This document shows positions 1 to 42,893 of a stretch of DNA of 64,000 nucleotides, piece by piece. How positions within the stretch are numbered: position 1 is the stretch's first letter; every line of letters begins with the position of its first letter. The translations under genes were made by a program, and so were the position numbers. A model generated the notes under the pieces. The model had not been told where the DNA came from. It searched no databases and saw only the letters and a program-made list of their open reading frames with translations. This DNA comes from an uncultured Gammaproteobacteria bacterium (GTDB taxonomy: Bacteria; Patescibacteriota; Patescibacteriia; Magasanikbacterales; UBA922). Where the stretch lies: contig CAYMVY010000001.1 in NCBI GenBank assembly GCA_964394405.1, positions 428,585-492,584 of the forward strand, written 5' to 3'.

Positions 1-432
1 TCGGTCAAGAATACGTCGCGCTTGCTGTGCATCGACAAGCTTCAGATCGATCGTACGGGGATTTTTGATAGCCTCTTCAATCGCATGTTTGGTAATTTCA
101 TGGAATACAATACGCTCAGCTTTTTTTGGGTCGATTTCGAATAGTTCTGCCAAATGCCAGGATATAGCTTCTCCTTCACGGTCTTCGTCAGTCGCAAATA
201 TGATCCGGTCATTTGCTTTTGCAAGCTTCTTTAATTTATCTGCCTGAGGTTTCCGATCTTTTGAAACGATGTAATGGGGCATGAAGGTTCCCCCGTCGAT
301 ATCAATACCCATTTTGCTTTTTGGCAGATCACGAACATGGCCGAACGATGATTCGACAATATATCCTTTTCCCAAAAAACGGGAAATTGTTTTAGCCTTT
401 GTTGGGGACTCGACGATTACTAATACTCCCAT
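1..432 (-). CDS. topA: DNA topoisomerase I, N-terminal Toprim region (5' partial gene; continues past window start)
   Basis: Manual minus-strand translation from ATG (complement 430-432): MGVLVIVESPTKAKTISRFLGKGYIVESSFGHVRDLPKS...IIFATDEDREGEAISWHLAELF. Toprim motifs match TopA. The ORF runs off the window, so it is absent from the ORF track. Confidence 0.8.
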   Translation of the reverse strand, partial: MGVLVIVESPTKAKTISRFLGKGYIVESSFGHVRDLPKSKMGIDIDGGTFMPHYIVSKDRKPQADKLKKLAKANDRIIFATDEDREGEAISWHLAELFEIDPKKAERIVFHEITKHAIEEAIKNPRTIDLKLVDAQQARRILDR

Positions 433-490
433 AGAAGAGGTAGTTGGAATTGATTTTGAGCCGTGAGCATACGTGAATATGCTCTAATTG

Positions 491-1816
491 TCAACCAACA
501 AGATGTCCACGTAATTCTCCTGACATGAAAATAGAGCCTGTCGCAAGAATACAATCATGTGGTTTCGCGATCCCCTTAGTATACTCGTATGCGTCTTTTG
601 GATCAAGGAATAACTGTATTTTGCACGCAGGCAATTCACGTCGTATATGAGTACGAATGACGTCCATGTCAGCAACTTTGCGGAACGGATTAACACTGTT
701 TCGTGTAATGGAAATGCTCGCGGGTTTTAAACTGAGTAATTGTTTGAGCATGCCCGGAACATCTTTATCTCCTGAGAAACTGATAATCAGGTGAAGTTTT
801 TTGATTCCAAAGAGCGGAAGTAAGGCGGCAGTGGTCTCGGTGGTAGATCGTATTTTATCTCTATTATGCGCACCATCAAGTATGGTAAGAGGTGTGGTCG
901 AGATTACCTCCATTCGAAGAGGTTGGGTAGTAGAGGCGAGTCCTTTGATGATGTGTGCTAGATCAATGCCTAGTTTTTTTGCAGCTTCAATACAAAGTAC
1001 TGCATTATGAATTTGATGTACTCCATATGCAGTGAGAGTAAACACGGTGCTATCGTAGGTAAAGGACACTCCTTTTTTGGTAGTCGAAACATCAGTGATA
1101 AGTGGTTTGGTGATTCTGGTGTAGGGGACATGTTGTTTGCGTGCCTCTGCTTCGATAATCCGTGCAATACGAGTATTTTTTTCAGAAGTTATAGCACACT
1201 TGGTTTTCTTGGTAATAATTCCCGCTTTTTCATATGCGATTTCTGATTTATTATTTCCAATAATTCCCACATGATCGAGTCCAATATTAGTAATAATGGC
1301 AATATCTTTGTGTGGAATAATATTACTTGAGTCGTATCTTCCACCACACGCAACTTCCATGACTGCATGTGTCACGCGGTGTCGTGTGAAAAATATAAGA
1401 CCAATTGCCTCAGTGAGTTCGAAAAAAGAAATCATGTCGTATGTTGTAGTTCTCATGTATTCATCAAGCTTTGGTTTGAGGTATTCTACGATTGACACAA
1501 ATTCATCCTCAGTCATGTAGGCATCTCCGATCTTCCATCGCTCAATAATACTACTCGGATGTGGAGAATAGGTAGAGCCGACTCGGTATCCTGCTGCATG
1601 AAGAATAGTATGCATGTATGCAGTGGTAGAGCCTTTGCCACTGGTGCCGGTTACATGGATATAGTGCTTTATTTTTTTCTCTGGGTTCCCGAGAACATCA
1701 AGAAAAGCTTGGAGACGATTCAAATACCATCCGCATTCACGAGGGTTTGCCATGTATTCTTTTCTCGGAATGTTCGAAAGCGATAGAATCCAATTGTATG
1801 CTTCATCAAAATTCAT
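491..1816 (-). CDS. folC: Mur-ligase family folylpolyglutamate synthase / dihydrofolate synthase-like protein
   Basis: 441 aa. P-loop VTGTSGKGST, DHxG and ILDGAHN motifs are typical of FolC/Mur ligases. Confidence 0.75.
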   Translation of the reverse strand: MNFDEAYNWILSLSNIPRKEYMANPRECGWYLNRLQAFLDVLGNPEKKIKHYIHVTGTSGKGSTTAYMHTILHAAGYRVGSTYSPHPSSIIERWKIGDAYMTEDEFVSIVEYLKPKLDEYMRTTTYDMISFFELTEAIGLIFFTRHRVTHAVMEVACGGRYDSSNIIPHKDIAIITNIGLDHVGIIGNNKSEIAYEKAGIITKKTKCAITSEKNTRIARIIEAEARKQHVPYTRITKPLITDVSTTKKGVSFTYDSTVFTLTAYGVHQIHNAVLCIEAAKKLGIDLAHIIKGLASTTQPLRMEVISTTPLTILDGAHNRDKIRSTTETTAALLPLFGIKKLHLIISFSGDKDVPGMLKQLLSLKPASISITRNSVNPFRKVADMDVIRTHIRRELPACKIQLFLDPKDAYEYTKGIAKPHDCILATGSIFMSGELRGHLVG

Positions 1817-1905
1817 AACTCAAAATTTAAAACTCAAAGCTCAAAACTATAACTTAAATCTAAAAACTTTTTTAATTGTAGTTTTGCGTTTTGACATTTG
1901 AGTTT
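1817..1905. repeat. AT-rich imperfect palindromic intergenic repeat (family copy 1: aaaactcaaagctcaaaactataactTaaa...gttttgacatttgagtttttag)
   Basis: Shares 20-30 nt blocks with copies at 11212, 24505, 30665 and 53109. Left arm aaaactNaaa..., right arm ...tttgagtttttag. Confidence 0.6.
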
Positions 1906-3009
1906 TTAGTTTTTTATAATGTACATCATATTCCCCACATTTTGTATCCGACCCTTCATCTCAAGTACTGTAAGCATGGCAATCACTGTGGGTCCGGGGA
2001 GGGTGGATTTTCGTGTAATTTCGTCAATATGGAGTGGTTCTCGACTAAGTAACTGGATTAACTGTCCTTCGTCATCCGTGTCTGGAATAGTTTCCTGTAC
2101 CCTGACGTGCCGTTCAAATGCATTGAGGTTCAGATTTTCAAGTATATCATCAGCACTTCGCACGAGGTATGCTCCATCACGAATAAGCTTGTGTGGCCCA
2201 GCACCTGTAGGAGATGTGAGTGGATGAGGCACCGCATATACATCACGCCCATATTCGAGAGAACACGAGGCAGTGATGAGCGCACCTGATTTTTCTGGAG
2301 CTTCGATAACGAGTGTTGCAAGAGAGATTCCTGCGACAATCCGGTTGCGTTTTGGAAAGCTGTAGGTGGTAGGAATTGCTCCTGGGGGGTATTCTCCAAT
2401 AAGAGCACCATTCCTGTCAATGATAGTCTCTCCGAGATCATAATGTGCACGAGGGTACACTGATTGTCGATCAATGCCTGAGCCGAGCACTCCGATCGTG
2501 GTGCCACGAGCATCAATTGTAGCTTTGTGTGCAACGCCATCAATACCAAGTGCTAATCCACTGATAATTTCAACGCCATGCACCGCAAGCTCACCGACGA
2601 TTTCTTCAGTCATTTGTTTTCCATATGTTGTCATTTTTCGAGTGCCGACAACGGCGATTCGAGGGCGGGAATTATCAATAATTCCACGGACAAAGAGTGC
2701 AACGGGCGGATCAAAGATTTCTTTGAGTAGTGGAGGATATTGGGAGTCTTCAATTGAAATAATTCGTATCTCGTCTCGCTCAAGTATATTTTGATACTCT
2801 TCTTCTCTAAATGAATTTCTCCAATGGAGAAATTCATTTGCGCTATTCTCATCAAATCCTGCTTTGATAAGTTCTTCAAATTCAGCAACCCAAACAAACT
2901 CAAAATTACTAAAAGCATTTTTGAGTATACGATATTTAGAAAGAGTGAATTTTGGATACAGACACAAACGATACAGAGCCTCCATGTAACGTGCTAAATC
3001 AATGTCCAA
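1906..3009 (-). CDS. dprA: DNA processing protein DprA (Smf)
   Basis: 367 aa. Rossmann-like DprA core (IAVVGTR...GLALGIDGVAH...SGALITA) plus a C-terminal winged-helix-like tail. Confidence 0.85.
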   Translation of the reverse strand: MDIDLARYMEALYRLCLYPKFTLSKYRILKNAFSNFEFVWVAEFEELIKAGFDENSANEFLHWRNSFREEEYQNILERDEIRIISIEDSQYPPLLKEIFDPPVALFVRGIIDNSRPRIAVVGTRKMTTYGKQMTEEIVGELAVHGVEIISGLALGIDGVAHKATIDARGTTIGVLGSGIDRQSVYPRAHYDLGETIIDRNGALIGEYPPGAIPTTYSFPKRNRIVAGISLATLVIEAPEKSGALITASCSLEYGRDVYAVPHPLTSPTGAGPHKLIRDGAYLVRSADDILENLNLNAFERHVRVQETIPDTDDEGQLIQLLSREPLHIDEITRKSTLPGPTVIAMLTVLEMKGRIQNVGNMMYIIKN

Positions 3010-3541
3010 TAAACGAAAGTAATATTCGTGCGCTTTCAGTAAGCATTGTCTCTAATTTTTTCTTTTCAAATAATCCAAATTTTTTCAAAACGAATGCTGC
3101 AACATCCTCCATTTTTTTGGGGTCTGCGATTCCTAGGCGTACTCGGGCGAATTCTTTGGTGGACAGAAGCTCAATAATTGATTTCACTCCATTATGTCCG
3201 GCATGTCCACGATCTTCTTGCATCCTAATCTCACCGAGGGGTAAATCTTTGTCATCATGAATGACAATCAAATCACGAGCGGACATTTTATAAAAATGCA
3301 TAATCATTGCAACTGATTCACCAGAGTGATTCATATAGGTGGTCGGTTTTGCAAGAATGATTTTTTCTCCATTGATCGTAGTACCGGAGACGTATGCATT
3401 GAATTTGGTACTCAACTCCCAATTATTAATTCCAGTATTTTTTAGCGCGATGTGCAATCGGTCAATCGCCATAAATCCTGCGTTATGGCGGGTTTTTTCA
3501 TATTTTTTTCCTGGATTGCCGAGTCCGACGATTAATTTCAT
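2999..3541 (-). CDS. pth: peptidyl-tRNA hydrolase
   Basis: 180 aa. LIVGLGNPG...YxxTRHNAGF motif. Confidence 0.9.
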   Translation of the reverse strand: MKLIVGLGNPGKKYEKTRHNAGFMAIDRLHIALKNTGINNWELSTKFNAYVSGTTINGEKIILAKPTTYMNHSGESVAMIMHFYKMSARDLIVIHDDKDLPLGEIRMQEDRGHAGHNGVKSIIELLSTKEFARVRLGIADPKKMEDVAAFVLKKFGLFEKKKLETMLTESARILLSFIGH

Positions 3542-3631
3542 AACATTGATTTAAACAGATTAACATAGATTACGCAGAAAATACTATCAATTCTTTCAGT
3601 CTAAATCAGTATCAATCTGTGTAATCAATGT

Positions 3632-5026
3632 TTAGATACGCTTCATTTTGGTCATTTTGATTACAATCGGAGTTCCCTCAAAACTGAATTCTTCACGTAA
3701 TTTACGTTCCAGATATTGTAAGTATGAACGATGAAGGGATGTGCGATATTTAATAAAAGCTTCGAATACGGGTGGGTCAGTGTTAATTTGACGGAAACGA
3801 GTAATGGAAGGTTGTCTAGTTCCTTTTCCGCGCGCAGGTTTGTGTTCCCAGGTAACTCGCTTGATAAAGAGATCTAATTTTCGTTGATCAACTTCTGTTT
3901 TTCGTGCTTCGGAAATCGTGGCTAATAGCGGAAATACCTGCTGTACGCGGTACCCACTTTTTCCACTAACAAATAAGATTGAAGCAAAATCAAGGTGTGG
4001 GAAATGAGCGTAGATCATCTGCTTCACCTCATTTCGGTGTGCGTCACTGTTGTCTTCCGCAAGATCCCATTTGTTCACCAGAATCACAACACTCTTGCTG
4101 CGTTTTTCGATAAGTCCTGCAAGTTGCATATCCTGTACGGAAATTGGCTCACTTCCATCAATGATCATGAGGATAATATCTGAGTGTTCAATCGTTTTAA
4201 TACTTTTGCTGATACCTTGTCGTTCTAGGACACCTGACACTTTTGCCTTTCTTCTAATACCCGCAGTATCAATAAAGGTGATTAAATATTTTTTTCCATC
4301 CATTTCGTAATCAACGGTAGTATCAAATGGTTCACGAGTGGTGTGTGCGATCGGGGATACAATTACTTTTTCGTCATCAATCAATTTATTAAACAAACTT
4401 GATTTTCCCGCGTTTGGTTTACCGATAAGGGCTACGTGGATGGTCTGTACTTGTTCCAAACTTTTTACTTTTGGTTTTTTTGATGCGAGATCAAGTGATT
4501 GATATATAAGATCAAGTAAATCTCCAACACCTCGTCCAGTTGCGGCTGAAATCATGTGGGGTTCTCCCATAGCAAGAGATGCCCAATCTGAAATAAGAAA
4601 TCCTTGTTCAATTTTTTTACTATCAGCTTTGTTTGCAACGAGAAATATATCTGCATTTTTTTTGTACGTGCGCACAATCATACGAGCGAGCTCCTTGTCC
4701 TGTGGGAGAACTCCTTCTTGTGAGTCAATGACAAATAGGATGATGTCCGCCTCTTTGAGAGCTTTACTCGATTGTTCGAGAATCTCATCGGCAAATAATT
4801 CGTTTTCCTTTGAATCAATTCCGCCGGTATCAATCAGTCGCACGTATTGTCCGCGCCAGAGGATATTACCCTCGTTATTAGTGCGAGTGGTGCCTGCGAT
4901 GTCAGAAACAAGTGCTTTGTTTTCTTCAATAAGCGCGTTAAACAACGTCGATTTACCTGCATTTGCTCGGCCGACGATAACCACGACTGGTAGTTGTTCT
5001 TTTAAGGCTACTCCAGGAATTGCCAT
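3632..5026 (-). CDS. der: ribosome-associated GTPase Der (EngA), tandem GTPase domains + KH-like C-terminus
   Basis: 464 aa. Two P-loops (GRANAGKST and GKPNAGKSS), two DTAG motifs, NKxD motifs. Confidence 0.9.
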   Translation of the reverse strand: MAIPGVALKEQLPVVVIVGRANAGKSTLFNALIEENKALVSDIAGTTRTNNEGNILWRGQYVRLIDTGGIDSKENELFADEILEQSSKALKEADIILFVIDSQEGVLPQDKELARMIVRTYKKNADIFLVANKADSKKIEQGFLISDWASLAMGEPHMISAATGRGVGDLLDLIYQSLDLASKKPKVKSLEQVQTIHVALIGKPNAGKSSLFNKLIDDEKVIVSPIAHTTREPFDTTVDYEMDGKKYLITFIDTAGIRRKAKVSGVLERQGISKSIKTIEHSDIILMIIDGSEPISVQDMQLAGLIEKRSKSVVILVNKWDLAEDNSDAHRNEVKQMIYAHFPHLDFASILFVSGKSGYRVQQVFPLLATISEARKTEVDQRKLDLFIKRVTWEHKPARGKGTRQPSITRFRQINTDPPVFEAFIKYRTSLHRSYLQYLERKLREEFSFEGTPIVIKMTKMKRI

Positions 5027-5053
5027 AGTAGTTCTAGTATATAGGATGATGAG

Positions 5054-6532
5054 TTATTCAACAAAGTCGTTGCCCAGTAATACCACAATATTCGTACTTG
5101 ACGCAAGGGGCACCAAGTTTTGAGGCAAGGTGGTTTTGAGTGGAATATTGAGTTCATCTGCAATATGTTGTCCCATCACCTGAACCGCAGGATCAAGGAT
5201 ATATACAGCGCTCAACGCAATTGGCTTCAAATTTGGGTCTACATTGCCTACTTTTTCAGCATATATTTGTTTTGCCTTGAGGCGGGCCTCTACTCGGGCA
5301 GCGAGTCCTGCACCCCAGGTACCGTTCTCGATTTCGATTATAGGTTCAATGGTTGCTTCAACTATAGAATCTTTAGTCGTTGCTTCTATTGGTGCATGCA
5401 CAGACTGTTGTATTCCTAGTACTCGAGGAGTGCTGGTAGAAGTAAAGATATTTTCAATTGCAGAATTAATATGAGCAAACGATCCACCTTTCGGACTCAG
5501 AATAAATGCTCCTCCGGGCGCAGATGAGTTGTAGAGAAAACCATTGGGGCTATCATCAAGCACCAGACTAGTCATGTCTGTGGTATTAAGCTCTCGCCCG
5601 AGTCGGACCAATTCAATAATTTCATCAAACTGCATATTGGTCGTCATATTTTTTTCCAGGGCATCGATAATTTTTTTTATTCGAAGAGGGTTGGTCAAAG
5701 TGCTGAAAGATAAAACTTTTTCTTTGAGCGCAAGCAATATTTGTTGCTGTCGTCGTGCTCTCGCAAAATCAGAACCTTCGCCATTATTACCATGACGTGA
5801 ACGAGCATACTTGAGGGCAGTAGCCCCGTCCATGGTTTGTGGTCCAGCAGTGAATGATATGGTTTGATAACTTTCACGTGGGCCAGGGTATTGATAATCG
5901 GTGAAACTAGTGGGTACATCAATTCGAACACCACCAACCTCGTCGATAATTTCTTCAAAGGCGGTGAAATCAAGACGAAGGTAATAGGGGATATCAATGT
6001 CGAATGTATCTGCGATTACTTCAGTTGCATATGCACCACCCCATCCGGTTTTTTCACTTTCACCAAATGCAGAGGCACTATTAATCTTGTATATACCCTT
6101 TCCTTTGATATTCACCCCAAGATCGCGTGGTATGGAAATAAGGGCGACCTGATGTGTTGAGGGTTGAATACTTGCGATGATAATCGTATCAGTAAGATAG
6201 GGACCATCGTGACCCGGTCCTCCCATACCAAGGAGTAATACATTGATCCGATCTCTCTTCTCACCTTCGAGATCGATATTTTTTTTGAATACAAGATAAC
6301 TTAATTTTTTCAAAAATCCATCTGGTTTTTTTGGCTCAAGTGTCAGTAGGTCATATTCGAGCTGACTATCGTTGCTACGCGCAATCAAGATTCCGCCACC
6401 GACAAGAATAAGTATAATAATTCCGAGTAACAAAAAAATTCGCCCTCGTCTGTTCGGAGGGGGTGGGGGTAATTGAGAATTATGAAAACCTGAGTGCTTT
6501 CGGAGTAGATTGATATGAGGTTCTTCAACCAT
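5054..6532 (-). CDS. LytR-CpsA-Psr (LCP) family cell-envelope phosphotransferase, membrane-anchored with long C-terminal extension
   Basis: 492 aa. N-terminal TM helix; LCP core (NVLLLGMGG...DTIIIASI...ISIPRDL). Confidence 0.75.
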   Translation of the reverse strand: MVEEPHINLLRKHSGFHNSQLPPPPPNRRGRIFLLLGIIILILVGGGILIARSNDSQLEYDLLTLEPKKPDGFLKKLSYLVFKKNIDLEGEKRDRINVLLLGMGGPGHDGPYLTDTIIIASIQPSTHQVALISIPRDLGVNIKGKGIYKINSASAFGESEKTGWGGAYATEVIADTFDIDIPYYLRLDFTAFEEIIDEVGGVRIDVPTSFTDYQYPGPRESYQTISFTAGPQTMDGATALKYARSRHGNNGEGSDFARARRQQQILLALKEKVLSFSTLTNPLRIKKIIDALEKNMTTNMQFDEIIELVRLGRELNTTDMTSLVLDDSPNGFLYNSSAPGGAFILSPKGGSFAHINSAIENIFTSTSTPRVLGIQQSVHAPIEATTKDSIVEATIEPIIEIENGTWGAGLAARVEARLKAKQIYAEKVGNVDPNLKPIALSAVYILDPAVQVMGQHIADELNIPLKTTLPQNLVPLASSTNIVVLLGNDFVE

Positions 6533-6648
6533 AGTACAGAAAAGTATATCTTAAATAGTTGTTTTTTGCAATTTAAAAACCCAGTGTGGTGTTGAATAAA
6601 AAGTATGGTATACTATATCAGTCCTTATTTTCCTATATGTGAATAGGT

Positions 6649-7152
6649 ATGCCCAAAGTTATAGACAACTCAACGGTAGTGGGGAATACACTGCTCGAAT
6701 GGAGTGTGGCAGAATATGAACAGCATATTCGTCCTCTCGCGTGGTACACAATCATGACGATTATAGGAGCGCTTCTGGTGGGGTATGCGATTTTTACTGA
6801 CAACTTCATGTTTGCAATCATTATAGTATTGTTTGCAATCATTATTTTTTTACAGTCACATCAGGAGCCTATTGTCGTCCCATTTCGAATAACAGAACTG
6901 GGGCTCGTTATTAATAATCGGCTATATATATACTCTGAGTTGAAGGATTTTTATATCATTTACGAACCACCAGAGATCAAAATGCTTTTTATTGAAACTA
7001 ATAGTACTATTCGCCCCCGTCTGAGAATTCCTCTAATGGATATGAATCCGAATGAGGTGAGGAGCTTATTGCTTGAATTTCTTGAAGAGAATTTACAAAA
7101 AGAAGAAGAGCCGTTTAGCGACAAGATTGCGAGAGAGTGGAGGATACATTAG
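6649..7152 (+). CDS. hypothetical membrane protein (2 TM helices)
   Basis: 167 aa ORF with hydrophobic helices. No recognisable family. Confidence 0.5.
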   Translation: MPKVIDNSTVVGNTLLEWSVAEYEQHIRPLAWYTIMTIIGALLVGYAIFTDNFMFAIIIVLFAIIIFLQSHQEPIVVPFRITELGLVINNRLYIYSELKDFYIIYEPPEIKMLFIETNSTIRPRLRIPLMDMNPNEVRSLLLEFLEENLQKEEEPFSDKIAREWRIH

Positions 7153-7255
7153 TCGAAAGTAAAAAGTCATAAAGTTCAAAAGTCAAATTCTCTCACTGTA
7201 TTTACTTTTCGATTTTAAGGACTTTATGACTTTTAGACTAGTCCTTGCATTATTC

Positions 7256-7285
7256 TTGACTTTTAACTGTTTTTCGGGGTATACT
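7256..7285 (+). promoter_or_regulatory. sigma70-like promoter (TTGACT-N18-TATACT) likely driving partial-tRNA / GIY-YIG / tRNA-Arg transcript
   Basis: ttgact at 7256-7261, tatact at 7280-7285. Sits downstream of a 14-bp inverted repeat (aaaagtcataaagt / actttatgactttt). Confidence 0.4.
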
Positions 7286-7309
7286 TCGCCTCGTTGTTTT
7301 TATATTTAC

Positions 7310-7369
7310 GCACTCGTCGTTTAACCCCGACGATTAGTCGGGGCTCCGACTTTACGTCGGAGTGGATAG
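7310..7369 (+). other. partial copy of tRNA-Arg(GCG) 5' end (22 nt) interrupted in the D-loop by a 38-nt double perfect hairpin insert
   Basis: 7310-7324 gcactcgtcgtttaa is identical to tRNA 7646-7660. Next come two perfect 7-bp hairpins (ccccgac-gatta-gtcgggg, ctccgac-tttac-gtcggag). Then tggatag (7363-7369) continues the tRNA sequence before diverging. Confidence 0.5.
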
Positions 7370-7381
7370 TACTATACAAGT

Positions 7382-7645
7382 ATGGAGGGATTTGTATATA
7401 TTCTAGAAGATGATCAGGGTAAATTCTATATCGGTAGTACTACAGATATAGAACGAAGATTTGCTCAACATACGTCTGGTCATACTCAAACTACACGAAG
7501 AATGGGAAGGTTAACTTTGCGTTTAGTACAGAAATACGATACCTTAGAGCAAGCTCGTTCAGTTGAAAAATCGATTAAAAAATTAAAGAGAAAGGATTAT
7601 ATAAAAAAGATGGTAGATGAACAGTACATTAAAATCAAACCTTAA
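7382..7645 (+). CDS. GIY-YIG nuclease family protein, YhbQ/UPF0213-like
   Basis: 87 aa. FVYILEDDQGKFYIGSTTDIERRFAQHTSG aligns with E. coli YhbQ ([30 protein letters not shown]). Its stop codon directly abuts the tRNA-Arg 5' end. Confidence 0.8.
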   Translation: MEGFVYILEDDQGKFYIGSTTDIERRFAQHTSGHTQTTRRMGRLTLRLVQKYDTLEQARSVEKSIKKLKRKDYIKKMVDEQYIKIKP

Positions 7646-7717
7646 GCACTCGTCGTTTAATGGATAGGACACTAGCTTGCGGAGCTGGTAATCGTGGTTC
7701 GATTCCACGCGAGTGCA
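7646..7717 (+). tRNA. tRNA-Arg (anticodon GCG as read)
   Basis: Manual cloverleaf: acceptor GCACTCG/CGAGTGC, D-arm GTTT-AATGGATA-GGAC, anticodon stem CTAGC/GCTGG with loop TTGCGGA, T-arm CGTGG-TTCGATT-CCACG, discriminator A. No encoded CCA. Confidence 0.8.
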
Positions 7718-7721
7718 CAAA

Positions 7722-7755
7722 TAAAAACACTGACCCAGGTCAGTGTTTTTATTTG
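7722..7755 (+). terminator. rho-independent terminator after tRNA-Arg
   Basis: aaacactgacc / caggtcagtgttt hairpin followed by T-run. Confidence 0.6.
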
Positions 7756-7794
7756 GTGAGCCTCACCTGTAAATTCTCTAAAAGTTGTGGTAGG

Positions 7795-40380: not shown

Positions 40381-40445
40381 GTTACGCAGACCACGCTCAT
40401 GTGGGGGTCCGCGAATAGAAATCATGTCTCCTCCAGTATTGTTGA

Positions 40446-41135
40446 TCAGCCGATCTGCATGGCGATGAGGGCCTTGGCACGCTGTCGGTCGACGAACTGC
40501 TTGCCGTGTCCGATCTCGGTGTTGACGGGGACACCATCCTTGCAGAATGGACACTCATCCTCGGTCCAGTTGTTGAGGTCGAGATCGTAGAGTGTCGCGA
40601 GGAAGGGCACGCCGAGTGTATCAGCGGTGACCTTGCTCATGCTCCGATTCACGATCGCAGCGACACCGAGGACCGTGCCACCGAGGGCGCGCACTGCATC
40701 GATGACTTTCTTGACCGACTGCCCAGTCGTGATGACGTCTTCTGCCACGAGAACGTCGTTGCCAGAGACGAGGGACTGGTAGCCGCGATTGAACACGAAC
40801 GACCCATCTGCCGTCTTCTCAGCGAAGACGGAATGAATCGGGAGATTCGTGCGGATGTACTGGCGCAGGTGAAACCCGAGCCAGGGGGAGAGGATCGCTC
40901 CTCCCATGGCAGGGCCGAGCACGACCTGGGGAACCTGCTTCAGTTGGGTGGTTGTGGCGAGGTGTCTGATGCACTCCTCGGAGAGCGCCTGACCCATGAG
41001 AGTCAGGAGGTCTGGCCTGGTGAAGAGTTTGTTCTTATCGACGTAGATGTCACCATGGCCACCCGCCGCATAGACGAAGTGTCCGGTGGTGATGGCGCCG
41101 ATCGCCTGGATTCTCTCTTGAGCACTCTGTCTCAT
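40446..41135 (-). CDS. type I phosphoribosyltransferase, orotate-PRTase-like (high-GC cassette)
   Basis: 229 aa. PRPP-binding VLVAEDVITTGQS. C-terminal WTEDECPFCKDGVP resembles PyrE-like proteins of high-GC lineages. GC-rich codons. Confidence 0.7.
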   Translation of the reverse strand: MRQSAQERIQAIGAITTGHFVYAAGGHGDIYVDKNKLFTRPDLLTLMGQALSEECIRHLATTTQLKQVPQVVLGPAMGGAILSPWLGFHLRQYIRTNLPIHSVFAEKTADGSFVFNRGYQSLVSGNDVLVAEDVITTGQSVKKVIDAVRALGGTVLGVAAIVNRSMSKVTADTLGVPFLATLYDLDLNNWTEDECPFCKDGVPVNTEIGHGKQFVDRQRAKALIAMQIG

Positions 41136-41298: not shown

Positions 41299-41365
41299 GT
41301 TCCGTTCTAAGTAGCTGGGCAACGAGCCTTCCTACCTCTAGGACATCAACCTTAAGGGGGTGTTC

Positions 41366-41731
41366 ATGACTGCACTGAAGGCGAAGACCTATTTCGTTCC
41401 GTTCGCCATCTCGCACTATCTCGAGTTCTACGAGCGCGTGTTTGCGGGTCAGATGATCCGCGTCTACATCTACAGCCTCGGACTTCGCTGGGTGCTCCCG
41501 AGAGAGCCCAGGAACAACGAGAAGGAGAAGAAGCTCGAGTTCGAGTTCCAACTCGTTCCCGAGCCCGGAGAGACGACCCGAGCTCGGAACCGGTGGTTCG
41601 AGGGCGAGTTCCTGTGGGAGACCTGTGACGGTTTCCTGAAGGTGGAAGCCGAGCTACTCCGCCCTCTCGGGAAGGTCGAGCTCGCTCCGTGGATCGCCAA
41701 AGAGGCGACCGTGGAGCACAGACACGTCTGA
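41366..41731 (+). CDS. hypothetical protein, high-GC cassette ORF C (121 aa from MTALKAK)
   Basis: GC3-saturated codons (AAG GCG AAG ACC TAT TTC GTT CCG ...). No family recognised. Confidence 0.55.
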   Translation: MTALKAKTYFVPFAISHYLEFYERVFAGQMIRVYIYSLGLRWVLPREPRNNEKEKKLEFEFQLVPEPGETTRARNRWFEGEFLWETCDGFLKVEAELLRPLGKVELAPWIAKEATVEHRHV

Positions 41732-41809
41732 GAGCTCCAGCTCTCTCTGACCCGACGCGTGCGACATTGTCCCTGGACAATCGATCGCACACGCGTCGGG
41801 GACAATCTA

Positions 41810-41846
41810 CCCCGCCTTTCGCGAAAGGCGGGGTTTTTGTTTTTTC
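41810..41846 (+). terminator. rho-independent terminator after ORF C (preceded by a ~50-nt palindrome cgacgcgtgcga...tcgcacacgcgtcg)
   Basis: ccccgcctttcgcgaaaggcggggtttttgtttttt. Confidence 0.6.
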
Positions 41847-41954
41847 AAATAAAAAATCCTTTATTTCAAGGATGCTATATGTATCTGGAATGTGGGACAC
41901 GGTGCAACACACAGCACTCTCGAGCGAGCGTGTGGGTTGCACCGTGGTACGGCG

Positions 41955-42297
41955 TCAGTGGCTCGGGGTAGAGGAATTCGAACCTTTCCTGCTCCACACG
42001 ATGTTGTGGTACCCGGTGCAGTATCCGTGGCAGACCACCCTCGGCCCGCCTACCCTAGGTTGGGCGCTGGCCTTTTTGTGGTACACCACCTCACCCGTGA
42101 GCGCACCAGGACAGAGCTCCCAATCGGGATGGTAGGTCCCGTCGGGAGAAATCGTGGCGAGACCAGAGATGGTGCGTCCGTTCTCCTGGAAGAGAACTGC
42201 ATTGTGCAGACCCTCCCTGAAGTGGCCAGTGATCATGAGATGGTCGTCCTTTCCGGCGACACTAGTCTCGGGCTGGATCATGAACTTGTTTGTCATG
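41955..42297 (-). CDS. hypothetical protein, high-GC cassette ORF D (start at MTNKF inferred from codon-usage break)
   Basis: From MTNKF downstream the codons are C/G-ending, while the upstream 36 codons of the ORF-track ORF are AT-rich. Competing + strand ORF 41892..42410 is Arg/Ser-rich, suggesting antisense artefact. Confidence 0.4.
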
Positions 42298-42461
42298 TTG
42301 ACGGTATCCCTCCTATGTGTGTTTCCGCCTCCCAGACGGATGTTGAGCTGATAACCTTGGGCAAGGTCAGGGAGATAAAAACGACAACTAGTATCGTCTC
42401 TACTCACTGATCTGTTATATACCAGGAAACATGAACGCCCTCCACAAGGAGGGCGTAATAA

Positions 42462-42537
42462 TGGTGACCCCGGTGGGGATCGAACCCACGACCATTGGCT
42501 TAAAAGGCCACTGCTCTACCAGCTGAGCTACAGGGTC
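42462..42537 (-). tRNA. tRNA-Lys (anticodon TTT), CCA encoded
   Basis: Reverse complement GACCCTGTAGCTCAGCTGGTAGAGCAGTGGCCTTTTAAGCCAATGGTCGTGGGTTCGATCCCCACCGGGGTCACCA. Followed (3') by hairpin cgccctcc-acaa-ggagggcg. Confidence 0.85.
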
Positions 42538-42581: not shown

Positions 42582-42634
42582 ACCAGCTGCCCGCCCGCCG
42601 AAGCTTTAGCGTAGGCGGGAGCTACAGGGTCATT
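42582..42634 (-). other. partial copy of tRNA-Lys 5' end (13+7 nt) interrupted at the D-loop by a 30-nt GC-rich hairpin insert
   Basis: Minus strand AAT-GACCCTGTAGCTC-[CCGCCTACGCTAAAGCTTCGGCGGGCGGGC]-AGCTGGT-cttatcg versus tRNA AAT-GACCCTGTAGCTC-AGCTGGT-agagcag. Confidence 0.5.
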
Positions 42635-42893
42635 TGTAATGAGTCAATGACGAATATACTAACCTAAGAATATAAAAAAGTCAAGCAAACTATAGCATAA
42701 AAAAGGAAAGTATAGTGAAGCTTCGAATTTTTGTTGTGAGAATGAAAATTGTATCAGTTCTGGCTACGAGAGGGGTGTCTCATTGTAGTTTGGGTAAGTG
42801 AGCATATATCAGTTCTATGTTTGGAATTTTGTGTGTCATGTACGTGAGTATGTTGCTCGTTTTTCTTTTTCACGATACACTATAGACATAGTA

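Follow-up and report, generated by a model that had tools for sequence, protein, structure and literature searches.

A GIY-YIG gene and a double-hairpin element inserted in a tRNA-Arg(GCG) gene belong to a tRNA-associated family widespread in Patescibacteria

SegB of phage T4 is described as a site-specific GIY-YIG homing endonuclease within the T4 transfer RNA (tRNA) gene cluster (PMC2330249). Mobile double-hairpin elements are known from Allomyces mitochondrial DNA (Paquin et al. 2000, as cited in PMC7218506). Here we examine a locus with features of both kinds. It lies in a 64,000-nt stretch of Patescibacteria DNA, referred to below as the window (GCA_964394405.1, contig CAYMVY010000001.1, positions 428,585 to 492,584 of the forward strand), in which an open reading frame (ORF) for an 87-aa GIY-YIG protein and a 38-nt double-hairpin element (DHE) are inserted in a tRNA-Arg(GCG) gene. 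Coordinates are those of the window, and loci from other genomes carry L numbers.

As with the T4 Seg genes, SegB among them, the GIY-YIG gene is found outside introns, among or in tRNA genes, and alleles with and without it coexist. The inheritance of Seg genes in T4 is favoured via double-strand-break repair that co-converts flanking markers, and the same is proposed here. Seg enzymes are several-fold larger, have DNA-binding domains and are encoded by phage genes located between genes. To our knowledge, Seg genes come without a double hairpin and leave behind no pieces of split or duplicated tRNA. Unlike Seg, the element described here splits the tRNA gene and carries a DHE, and its 87-aa protein lacks a DNA-binding domain. 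In Allomyces, Paquin et al. reportedly found in 1994 that a mobile GIY-YIG ORF had entered atp6 together with a replacement gene segment. As in that case, insertion of the mobile GIY-YIG ORF here supplies the interrupted part of the gene in functional form, and the displaced part remains as a fragment. The DHEs of Allomyces and those described here both co-occur with a mobile GIY-YIG ORF, and both are built of a pair of adjoining G+C-rich stem-loops whose presence varies between relatives (here, window versus L083 and L062 versus L070), a resemblance in form alone. The Allomyces system differs in being organellar and in having a protein-coding target; its DHEs are scattered in intergenic regions, introns and rRNA, whereas 70/74 DHEs of Patescibacteria are in tRNA fragments. 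By analogy, Allomyces mitochondria would seem to offer the closest parallel to this element.

The tRNA-Arg(GCG) locus of the window has the following features.

7256–7285, plus strand: promoter-like TTGACT-18-TATACT from a promoter scan, the resident tRNA promoter
7310–7324, plus strand: tRNA-Arg(GCG) nt 1–15, GCACTCGTCGTTTAA, the left junction, with 15/15 identity to 7646–7660
7325–7362, plus strand: DHE, made up in folds of hairpin 1 (HP1, 7325–7343) and hairpin 2 (HP2, 7344–7362)
7363–7369, plus strand: TGGATAG, tRNA nt 16–22 by sequence, where the D-loop resumes straight after the DHE
7370–7381, plus strand: A/T-rich 12-nt spacer ahead of the start codon, by sequence
7382–7645, plus strand: 87-aa GIY-YIG ORF including the stop (PF01541), its TAA at 7643–7645 abutting tRNA +1
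7646–7718, plus strand: intact tRNA-Arg(GCG) (ARAGORN; Rfam tRNA, 57 bits)
7718–7755, plus strand: terminator, a hairpin with a perfect 18-bp stem and a T-run (inverted repeat I3 and sequence)
7325–7660 (equivalent to 7310–7645), plus strand: the whole insertion, 336 nt, the sole difference between the window and L083, in which flanks and tRNA are identical

An earlier note on this DNA had claimed a split copy of the tRNA laid out as 15 nt, two 7-bp hairpins, TGGATAG, ORF and tRNA, with the TAA directly before tRNA base 1, a promoter at 7256–7285 and a terminator after the tRNA. All of these features were found where it had placed them, and the tRNA that it had called was also recovered by ARAGORN with the anticodon GCG. 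The 15-nt match proved significant, as the 15-mer occurs exactly twice in the window and 0/100 shuffles had even one match. HP1 (CCCCGAC GATTA GTCGGGG) and HP2 (CTCCGAC TTTAC GTCGGAG) adjoin, have perfect 7-bp stems with CCGAC/GTCGG cores, and are present in both the minimum-free-energy and the centroid folds. The 38-nt insert folded alone gives −24.6 kcal/mol. Related loci have tRNA nt 16 to 21–29 at the position that matches 7363–7369, and their spacer on the DHE side of the ORF is mostly 3–24 nt, with a maximum of 38 nt. We infer that the promoter at 7256–7285 now drives leader, hairpins, ORF and tRNA as a single transcription unit. Separately, the leader at 7296–7316 (GTTTTTATATTTAC) is complementary to the trailer at 7710–7730 (ACAAATAAAAAC), a possible extension of acceptor-stem pairing to 21 nt at 81% complementarity. 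This leader is outside the insertion, because the same leader is present at the empty site L083.

The upstream neighbour gene, which encodes a 167-aa protein (6649–7149), was used to find orthologous loci and gave a graded series of orthologues in Magasanikbacteria-like genomes. The comparison set comprised nine loci from relatives (L083–L091, seven distinct sequences) in which the 167-aa neighbour is 79–85% identical to that of the window. In all of them the promoter leads directly into an uninterrupted tRNA-Arg(GCG) and the DHE is not present. Promoter and leader of L083 are near-identical to the window over ~95 nt. The tRNA is identical to that of the window at 73/73 positions in three sequence types (L083, L087/L088 and L090/L091), and window positions 7310–7324 align column for column with the tRNA start in L083–L086. 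The 336-nt block that separates the window from L083 consists of the double hairpin, tRNA nt 16–22, the 12-nt spacer, the 87-aa ORF and a second tRNA nt 1–15. This second segment, at 7646–7660, is the duplicated part and forms the right end of the insertion if the latter is placed at 15/16. Because of the 15-nt repeat, the exact breakpoint is ambiguous (7325–7660 or 7310–7645). The same insertion was found in two more samples, L001, which is identical over 13.4 kb, and L002, with 2 single-nucleotide polymorphisms. The runs SRR12404947 and DRR736411 represent occupied samples. The site therefore shows a precise presence/absence polymorphism, being occupied in the window, L001 and L002 and empty in L083–L091. 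The window appears to hold a tRNA-Arg(GCG) allele that was invaded recently. A single gain in the window lineage is more parsimonious than several precise losses.

The empty-site comparison, which the earlier note had proposed, supports its reading of the locus as an insertion scar or the product of mobile GIY-YIG homing. One part of that reading needs refinement. The upstream 15 nt had been taken for a copy placed there; since the promoter and leader are shared with the empty alleles, these 15 nt are the 5' end of the resident tRNA itself, which has kept its position after the promoter. Entry of the DHE duplicates no base (TTTAA/DHE/TGGATAG versus TTTAATGGATAG in L083; slashes mark junctions here and below). 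The palindromes of the DHE are internal and are not the terminal inverted repeats of a longer unit, and there is no target-site duplication, so that it does not resemble a miniature inverted-repeat transposable element or an insertion sequence. The right boundary was sought by alignment 3' of the tRNA, where terminators and spacers are unalignable among the relatives. Three of these loci have a conserved block of 170–220 nt soon after the tRNA-Arg(GCG) terminator (L084:3660–3880, L086:3720–3960 and L087:3150–3400). The block contains …GGAATCGAACCAGGGAAGGGTGAAACCGTAAGGTTTCAC…CTGAGGAAAG…, has its own terminator and ends with a copy of the T-arm 3' strand and acceptor 3' strand of the tRNA, TTCCACGCGAGTGCAC. 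It is a second, different type of tRNA-end duplication and is not in the window.

Genes for tRNAs are classic integration targets in which a duplicated segment restores the gene, and group I introns with endonuclease genes occur in tRNA genes of Patescibacteria (PMC13011429). The 87-aa protein also has a weak, sub-threshold NCBIfam match to 'group I intron endonuclease'. The locus could be an att-site scar left when an island or prophage integrated by means of an integrase, or a self-splicing D-loop intron with a homing endonuclease gene. Both possibilities are contradicted by the anatomy of the insertion, and we regard them as extremely improbable. The 336-nt insertion holds the GIY-YIG ORF only and no integrase, its repeat is the 5' end of the tRNA and not the 3' end, and no close homologues were found in 2.9 million viral contigs. 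Only ~75 nt are non-coding. Rfam, applied at the gathering threshold to the whole window and at E<10 to 7230–7760, matched only the tRNA in this region; an intron, ribozyme or riboswitch at 7230–7760 was rejected on this result. Splicing would be unnecessary because an intact tRNA follows the ORF.

Some likeness to both classes of element remains. As with phages, integrative and conjugative elements and archaeal viruses in tRNA genes, the missing part of the gene is supplied and displaced fragments from successive invasions accumulate like fossils (two remnants in L024). Such elements run to kilobases, rely on tyrosine or serine integrases and leave the 3' part of the tRNA in two copies. The element described here, at ~0.3 kb, encodes a nuclease and no integrase; it duplicates the 5' part of the tRNA or comes with a complete one. 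With the group I introns it shares the phylum, the target class and a tRNA that stays usable (PMC13011429). The introns, at 35/36, are removed by a ribozyme at the RNA level; here duplication or replacement takes place at the DNA level.

The family was surveyed in one genome per GTDB species, searched by protein alone. The survey confirmed 123 loci, of which 80 were kept for analysis. Nearly all are from Patescibacteria, and a few have other bin labels. In 64/80 loci the ORF ends ≤30 nt from a tRNA on the same strand, and in 5/80 a tRNA is found within 170 nt after the ORF, some with a further split copy between. In a further 5/80 the tRNA is present yet missed by ARAGORN (three tRNA-Asn, one tRNA-His and one at a contig end). 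The ORF is therefore just upstream of a same-strand tRNA in 74/80. Four of the 80 loci have the V2 arrangement, in which the ORF directly follows an intact tRNA and precedes a hairpin-split remnant, and contig ends cut the remaining 2/80. In either arrangement the element is tRNA-adjacent in 78/80 loci, in line with the earlier suggestion of a GIY-YIG cassette homing next to tRNA genes and against random placement relative to tRNAs. The claim that the arrangement is not a one-off is likewise borne out by its recurrence across the 80 loci. In the window and in 74/80 related loci an intact tRNA after the ORF keeps the function of the host gene. Ten amino-acid identities are represented: Arg, Thr, Phe, His, Val, Ile, Met, Lys and Asn among tRNAs that follow the ORF, and Ala in the V2 loci. 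The family is widespread, with at least 123 species-level genomes, and enters many tRNA genes.

A split 5' tRNA copy of at least 9 nt was found in 38/71 loci, with both segments in 27; older copies have diverged. In 21 loci the ORF reaches 10 nt into the tRNA and its stop codon is the conserved U8-A9-G10 (TAG). These loci are:

10-nt ORF/tRNA overlap, first set: L004, L006, L008, L009, L019–L021, L023, L031, L033, L035
10-nt ORF/tRNA overlap, second set: L037, L039, L047, L055, L059, L063, L068, L072, L076, L079

Because the stop codon is inside the tRNA in these 21 loci, RNase P cleavage would leave a messenger RNA (mRNA) without a stop.

Some loci of the survey have additional insertions. 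The three missed tRNA-Asn genes have an insertion in the anticodon loop, 3' of the cassette (L061:3318–3360, L066:3270–3310 and L077:470–510), and this is why ARAGORN misses them. The insertions agree with group I introns known from position 35/36 of tRNA genes in Patescibacteria (PMC13011429), so that tRNA-Asn genes with such introns would adjoin cassettes in these three loci. Tandem arrangements were seen twice. L050 has a second unit of split copy and hairpin, and the start of another ORF, after the first ORF (3270–3351). In L045 the anticodon loop of a tRNA-His fragment contains a tandem pair of identical double hairpins (2904–2991).

The same double hairpin is found ahead of the ORF in ~60 related loci, inside a disabled partial tRNA copy. 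The hairpin module to which the earlier note had drawn attention is thus conserved and no local accident. Its consensus is NNCCGAC-G…R-GTCGGNN followed directly by NNCCGAC…C-GTCGGNN, a motif that is its own reverse complement. The two 7-bp stems abut in 76/76 DHEs, with loops of 5 to 45 nt; the base after the first CCGAC is G in 74/76, and the base before the last GTCGG is C in 65/76. The two outer stem pairs covary, being Watson-Crick in 204/218 and 195/218 hairpins with 3–4 pair types. G·T and C·A exceptions at the outer pairs are too few to decide between function as RNA and function as DNA, and a search of Rfam returned no family matching the DHE. Strict DHEs are ≤150 nt from an ORF or tRNA in 70/74 cases, a zone that makes up 15.7% of the sampled sequence. 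Of the remaining four, two have tRNA-like fragments on their flanks. DHEs are almost exclusively within disabled tRNA fragments.

The position at which the tRNA is split falls into three classes.

D-loop, 15/16: junction …TCAR/YGGNAG…, the class of the window
D-stem, 10/11: junction …TAG/CTCA…
Anticodon loop, 34/35, in tRNA-His: junction …CTCTG/TGGCAG…

Protein lineages follow the class of split site. Identity is 58% within classes and 53% between them, a gap reached in 0/2000 permutations, and the 10/11 class by itself spans six tRNA identities. L062 and L070 differ solely by a 40-nt double hairpin (L062:2933–2972) inside the CCGA/C core of HP2, and nested hairpins are common (L010, L021, L025, L051, L067 and L079). 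The DHE is therefore able to move by itself. As for the source of the palindromes, the possibility that they are P-nucleotide footprints of hairpin-ended breaks was rejected, since the CCGAC/GTCGG stems are conserved and bear no relation to the flanks. CCGAC and GTCGG are also the T-stem pentamers of some tRNA-Thr (GTCGG-TTCAAGC-CCGAC; L009:3258–3331 and L054:3325–3398), a likeness that may point to where the hairpin module came from, or be coincidental.

Because the DHE can move alone, it could itself be the mobile agent, a self-sufficient miniature palindromic unit aimed at tRNA-like loops. The protein would then be a structure-specific, Slx1-like enzyme that services hairpins or cruciforms, or a passenger, and not a homing enzyme with sequence specificity for empty tRNA genes. 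The lone DHE in L062 compared with L070, the nesting of hairpins within hairpin loops, and the ORF-less DHE-split copies upstream of tRNAs (including tRNA-Lys of the window, see below) speak for this alternative. It would also suit a protein that is Slx1/UPF0213-like and has no DNA-binding domain, and the reverse-complement symmetry of the DHE fits a DNA structure or a dimer site. However, DHE and ORF are nearly always together and came in jointly at the window locus, with no intermediate among the nine relatives' loci, and protein clades follow the insertion site. Furthermore, DHEs are essentially missing away from tRNA fragments, and the ORF is under purifying selection wherever a DHE occurs. 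Mobility driven by the DHE is a serious alternative, though in our judgement an unlikely one. Most of the evidence is common to it and to homing by the nuclease, and the two differ in what the enzyme cuts.

Many loci take a fuller form. After the intact tRNA and a few unrelated bases comes a 5'-truncated D-arm piece (from ~nt 7–11), followed by a second DHE at the same position and then by the remainder of another tRNA, one that belongs to the same isoacceptor. In L018 the upstream GCCCTCG pairs with the CGAGGGC of the remnant 3' strand, the intact tRNA between them has GCGCTCG/CGAGCGC, and the remnant has its own T-arm. Since the upstream fragment pairs with the remnant, the resident gene in L018 was split at 15/16 and a complete tRNA was supplied by the element. 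Foreign 3' remnants are kept in L020, L024, L030 and L038, those of L024 being successive. In L010 and L016 the upstream fragment is from another tRNA variant than the downstream tRNA. The left and right DHEs within one locus are 87–94% identical including the loops (L020, L021, L038 and L080), which exceeds the identity of every cross-locus pair. In its fuller forms the element brings its own tRNA, and the resident 3' part stays downstream behind a second, near-identical DHE.

The 87-aa ORF matches PF01541 with an E value of 1.1e-14 and 54.8 bits (cut-off 22.6), residues 3–71 aligning with positions 2–74 of the 78 in the model. The protein alignment behind the family comprises 49 homologues (44–67% identity), in which the catalytic set Y16, G18, R26, H30 and E62 is invariant and Y6 nearly so. 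A profile comparison with the PDB gave 1zg2 (1.8e-10), 1ywl (2.2e-9), SLX1 (3e-4), I-TevI (4e-3) and UvrC (3e-2). The label 'YhbQ-like' given to the protein by the earlier note is a fair one, because the nearest solved relatives are the UPF0213 proteins 1zg2 and 1ywl, followed by SLX1. The protein is a single minimal domain, closest to the UPF0213/Slx1 branch rather than to I-TevI or UvrC. As a test of YhbQ orthology, NCBIfam gave weak sub-threshold matches only, every model being below its cut-off. UPF0213/YhbQ/Slx1-like proteins (1zg2, 1ywl; PMC1564403) are similarly small at ~90–100 aa and have the same minimal GIY-YIG domain and catalytic residues; they differ in having no reported link to tRNAs, no reported hairpin module and no reported mobility. 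The ratio of nonsynonymous to synonymous substitution rates among family ORFs is 0.13–0.6, with 0.13 in the closest pair and a median of 0.34. The nuclease is maintained, as its conserved catalytic residues and the purifying selection show. PADLOC and PHROGs yielded weak generic 'homing endonuclease' matches only. The 2.9 million viral contigs gave distant partial GIY-YIG matches (30–55% over part of the protein) and no family members, and so offer no support for a phage vector.

These loci are probably a family of homing-type selfish elements, each composed of a GIY-YIG gene and a ~38-nt DHE, that invade tRNA genes, with the DHE also mobile by itself. The nuclease would cut the DNA of tRNA genes at a short conserved motif (TCAR/YGGNAG, TAG/CTCA or CTCTG/TGGCAG). 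Repair of the break from an occupied allele would copy DHE, ORF and tRNA, an intron-less homing with co-conversion like that of phage Seg enzymes (PMC2330249). If both broken ends copied the DHE-bearing template, imprecise joining could give a tRNA plus a remnant with two near-identical DHEs. The form in the window would be the simple product, or would have been resolved by recombination between two tRNA copies. The DHE would destroy the target in the leftover tRNA fragment. The ORF, which seems to have no promoter of its own here, would be transcribed from the tRNA promoter, and RNase P would release the tRNA and thereby separate it from the mRNA. The RNase P processing put forward in the earlier note is reasonable as a prediction. 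Judged from sequence, the element would behave as a free-standing homing endonuclease gene minus the DNA-binding domain.

Several points weigh against homing in this form. We only infer that the nuclease cleaves and that its target is in tRNA genes. Known GIY-YIG homing enzymes have a separate DNA-binding domain. A Pfam scan of the 87-aa protein found no second domain, hence no DNA-binding domain as in I-TevI or Seg, and site specificity by a lone catalytic domain would be left unexplained. Immunity by target destruction fails to explain why the new tRNA is spared, because the occupied allele regenerates an intact D-arm. The window locus is without a downstream remnant, and could be a simple insertion or a resolved full form. 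In L020 and L038 it is the intact tRNA, and not the remnant, that the upstream fragment matches, which suggests mixed histories with variable conversion tracts. Given the ORF-less copies at tRNA-Lys and in L029, L036 and L063, the duplication may be independent of an ORF in cis. Finally, the unalignable sequence after the tRNA would be compatible with a terminator that arrived with the element or without it.

The element could also act at the RNA level, its 5' leader (nt 1–15, DHE, nt 16–22) being either a protein-binding scaffold between the two parts of a guide that would direct the nuclease to the matching tRNA gene, or a cis-regulatory tRNA mimic with control over processing or translation of the ORF–tRNA co-transcript. 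The leader would be transcribed from the tRNA promoter ahead of the ORF, the stems are conserved and the loops variable, in many loci, across different tRNA identities, the flanks agree with the local tRNA, and the protein is without a DNA-binding domain of its own. Conversely, about half of the loci have flanks that are decayed or from another tRNA (L004, L006, L010 and L016), and there is no common RNA fold, as the insertion point varies by lineage (15/16, 10/11 and 34/35). In the V2 arrangement the DHE is downstream of the ORF. The reverse-complement symmetry has no obvious RNA rationale, and no Rfam family matches. We consider action at the RNA level very unlikely. One variant has the leader as nuclease guide: the DHE would bind the 87-aa protein, the flanking tRNA segments would pair with the template strand of the uninterrupted tRNA gene, and the cut would fall where the guide is discontinuous, at 15/16. 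This minimal nucleic-acid-guided homing system is very unlikely indeed; if it existed, its target would be re-written at each entry into a new tRNA gene.

A second locus in the window has a split copy without an ORF.

42582–42631, minus strand: ORF-less split copy at tRNA-Lys, with tRNA nt 1–13 at 42631–42619 and nt 13–20 at 42589–42582

The tRNA-Lys copy is split by one 29-nt GC-rich hairpin (42618–42590) with the core CCGCC/GGCGG, not CCGAC/GTCGG. The locus has no ORF and a 44-nt spacer, with the tRNA at 42537–42462 and a promoter at 42684–42656, also on the minus strand. The earlier note had seen the same signature here as at tRNA-Arg. The split 5' copy around a hairpin stands, and the likeness ends there, as the hairpin is single and divergent and the ORF is missing. 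From its sequence the tRNA-Lys locus appears to be a related, divergent ORF-less form. ORF-less split copies were also found upstream of tRNAs in L029, L036, L054, L063 and L069. An empty site for tRNA-Lys was sought via the neighbouring pyruvate kinase gene. The 17 closest of 80 metagenome loci (50–65% identical) have no upstream tRNA-Lys, and the comparison is uninformative because there is no synteny at the pyruvate kinase loci. Directly downstream of tRNA-Lys, at 40400–41100 and 41300–42400, are islands of ~60% G+C in a genome of ~37% G+C. Their ORFs are Arg/Pro/Gly-rich in all frames, they contain a 48-nt perfect-looking palindrome (41752–41799), and they have no Rfam match even at E<1. 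The islands may represent foreign DNA, or a large structured RNA that has not been annotated.

In the literature searched, no description was found of GIY-YIG genes wedged into tRNA genes with hairpins, and neither GIY-YIG nor hairpins come up in a 2026 survey of tRNA introns in Patescibacteria (PMC13011429). The protein family is known (GIY-YIG, UPF0213/Slx1-like); the tRNA-invading cassette with its DHE is undescribed in that literature. It accounts for many small 'GIY-YIG nuclease family protein' genes beside tRNAs in the very small genomes of Patescibacteria, and for nearby tRNA fragments and GC-rich palindromes, which are able to confuse tRNA annotation and assembly. These elements take an unusual route into a short, essential, non-coding gene without an intron, by rebuilding or replacing it at the DNA level, with the disabled piece marked by a 38-nt module. 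The finding suggests a role for the stand-alone UPF0213/YhbQ/Slx1-like family. Should the 87-aa enzyme prove specific for a sequence or structure, it would count among the smallest known nucleases with site selectivity. Because whole tRNA genes are carried between lineages, the elements may drive the replacement of tRNA genes in a phylum whose tRNA sets are minimal.

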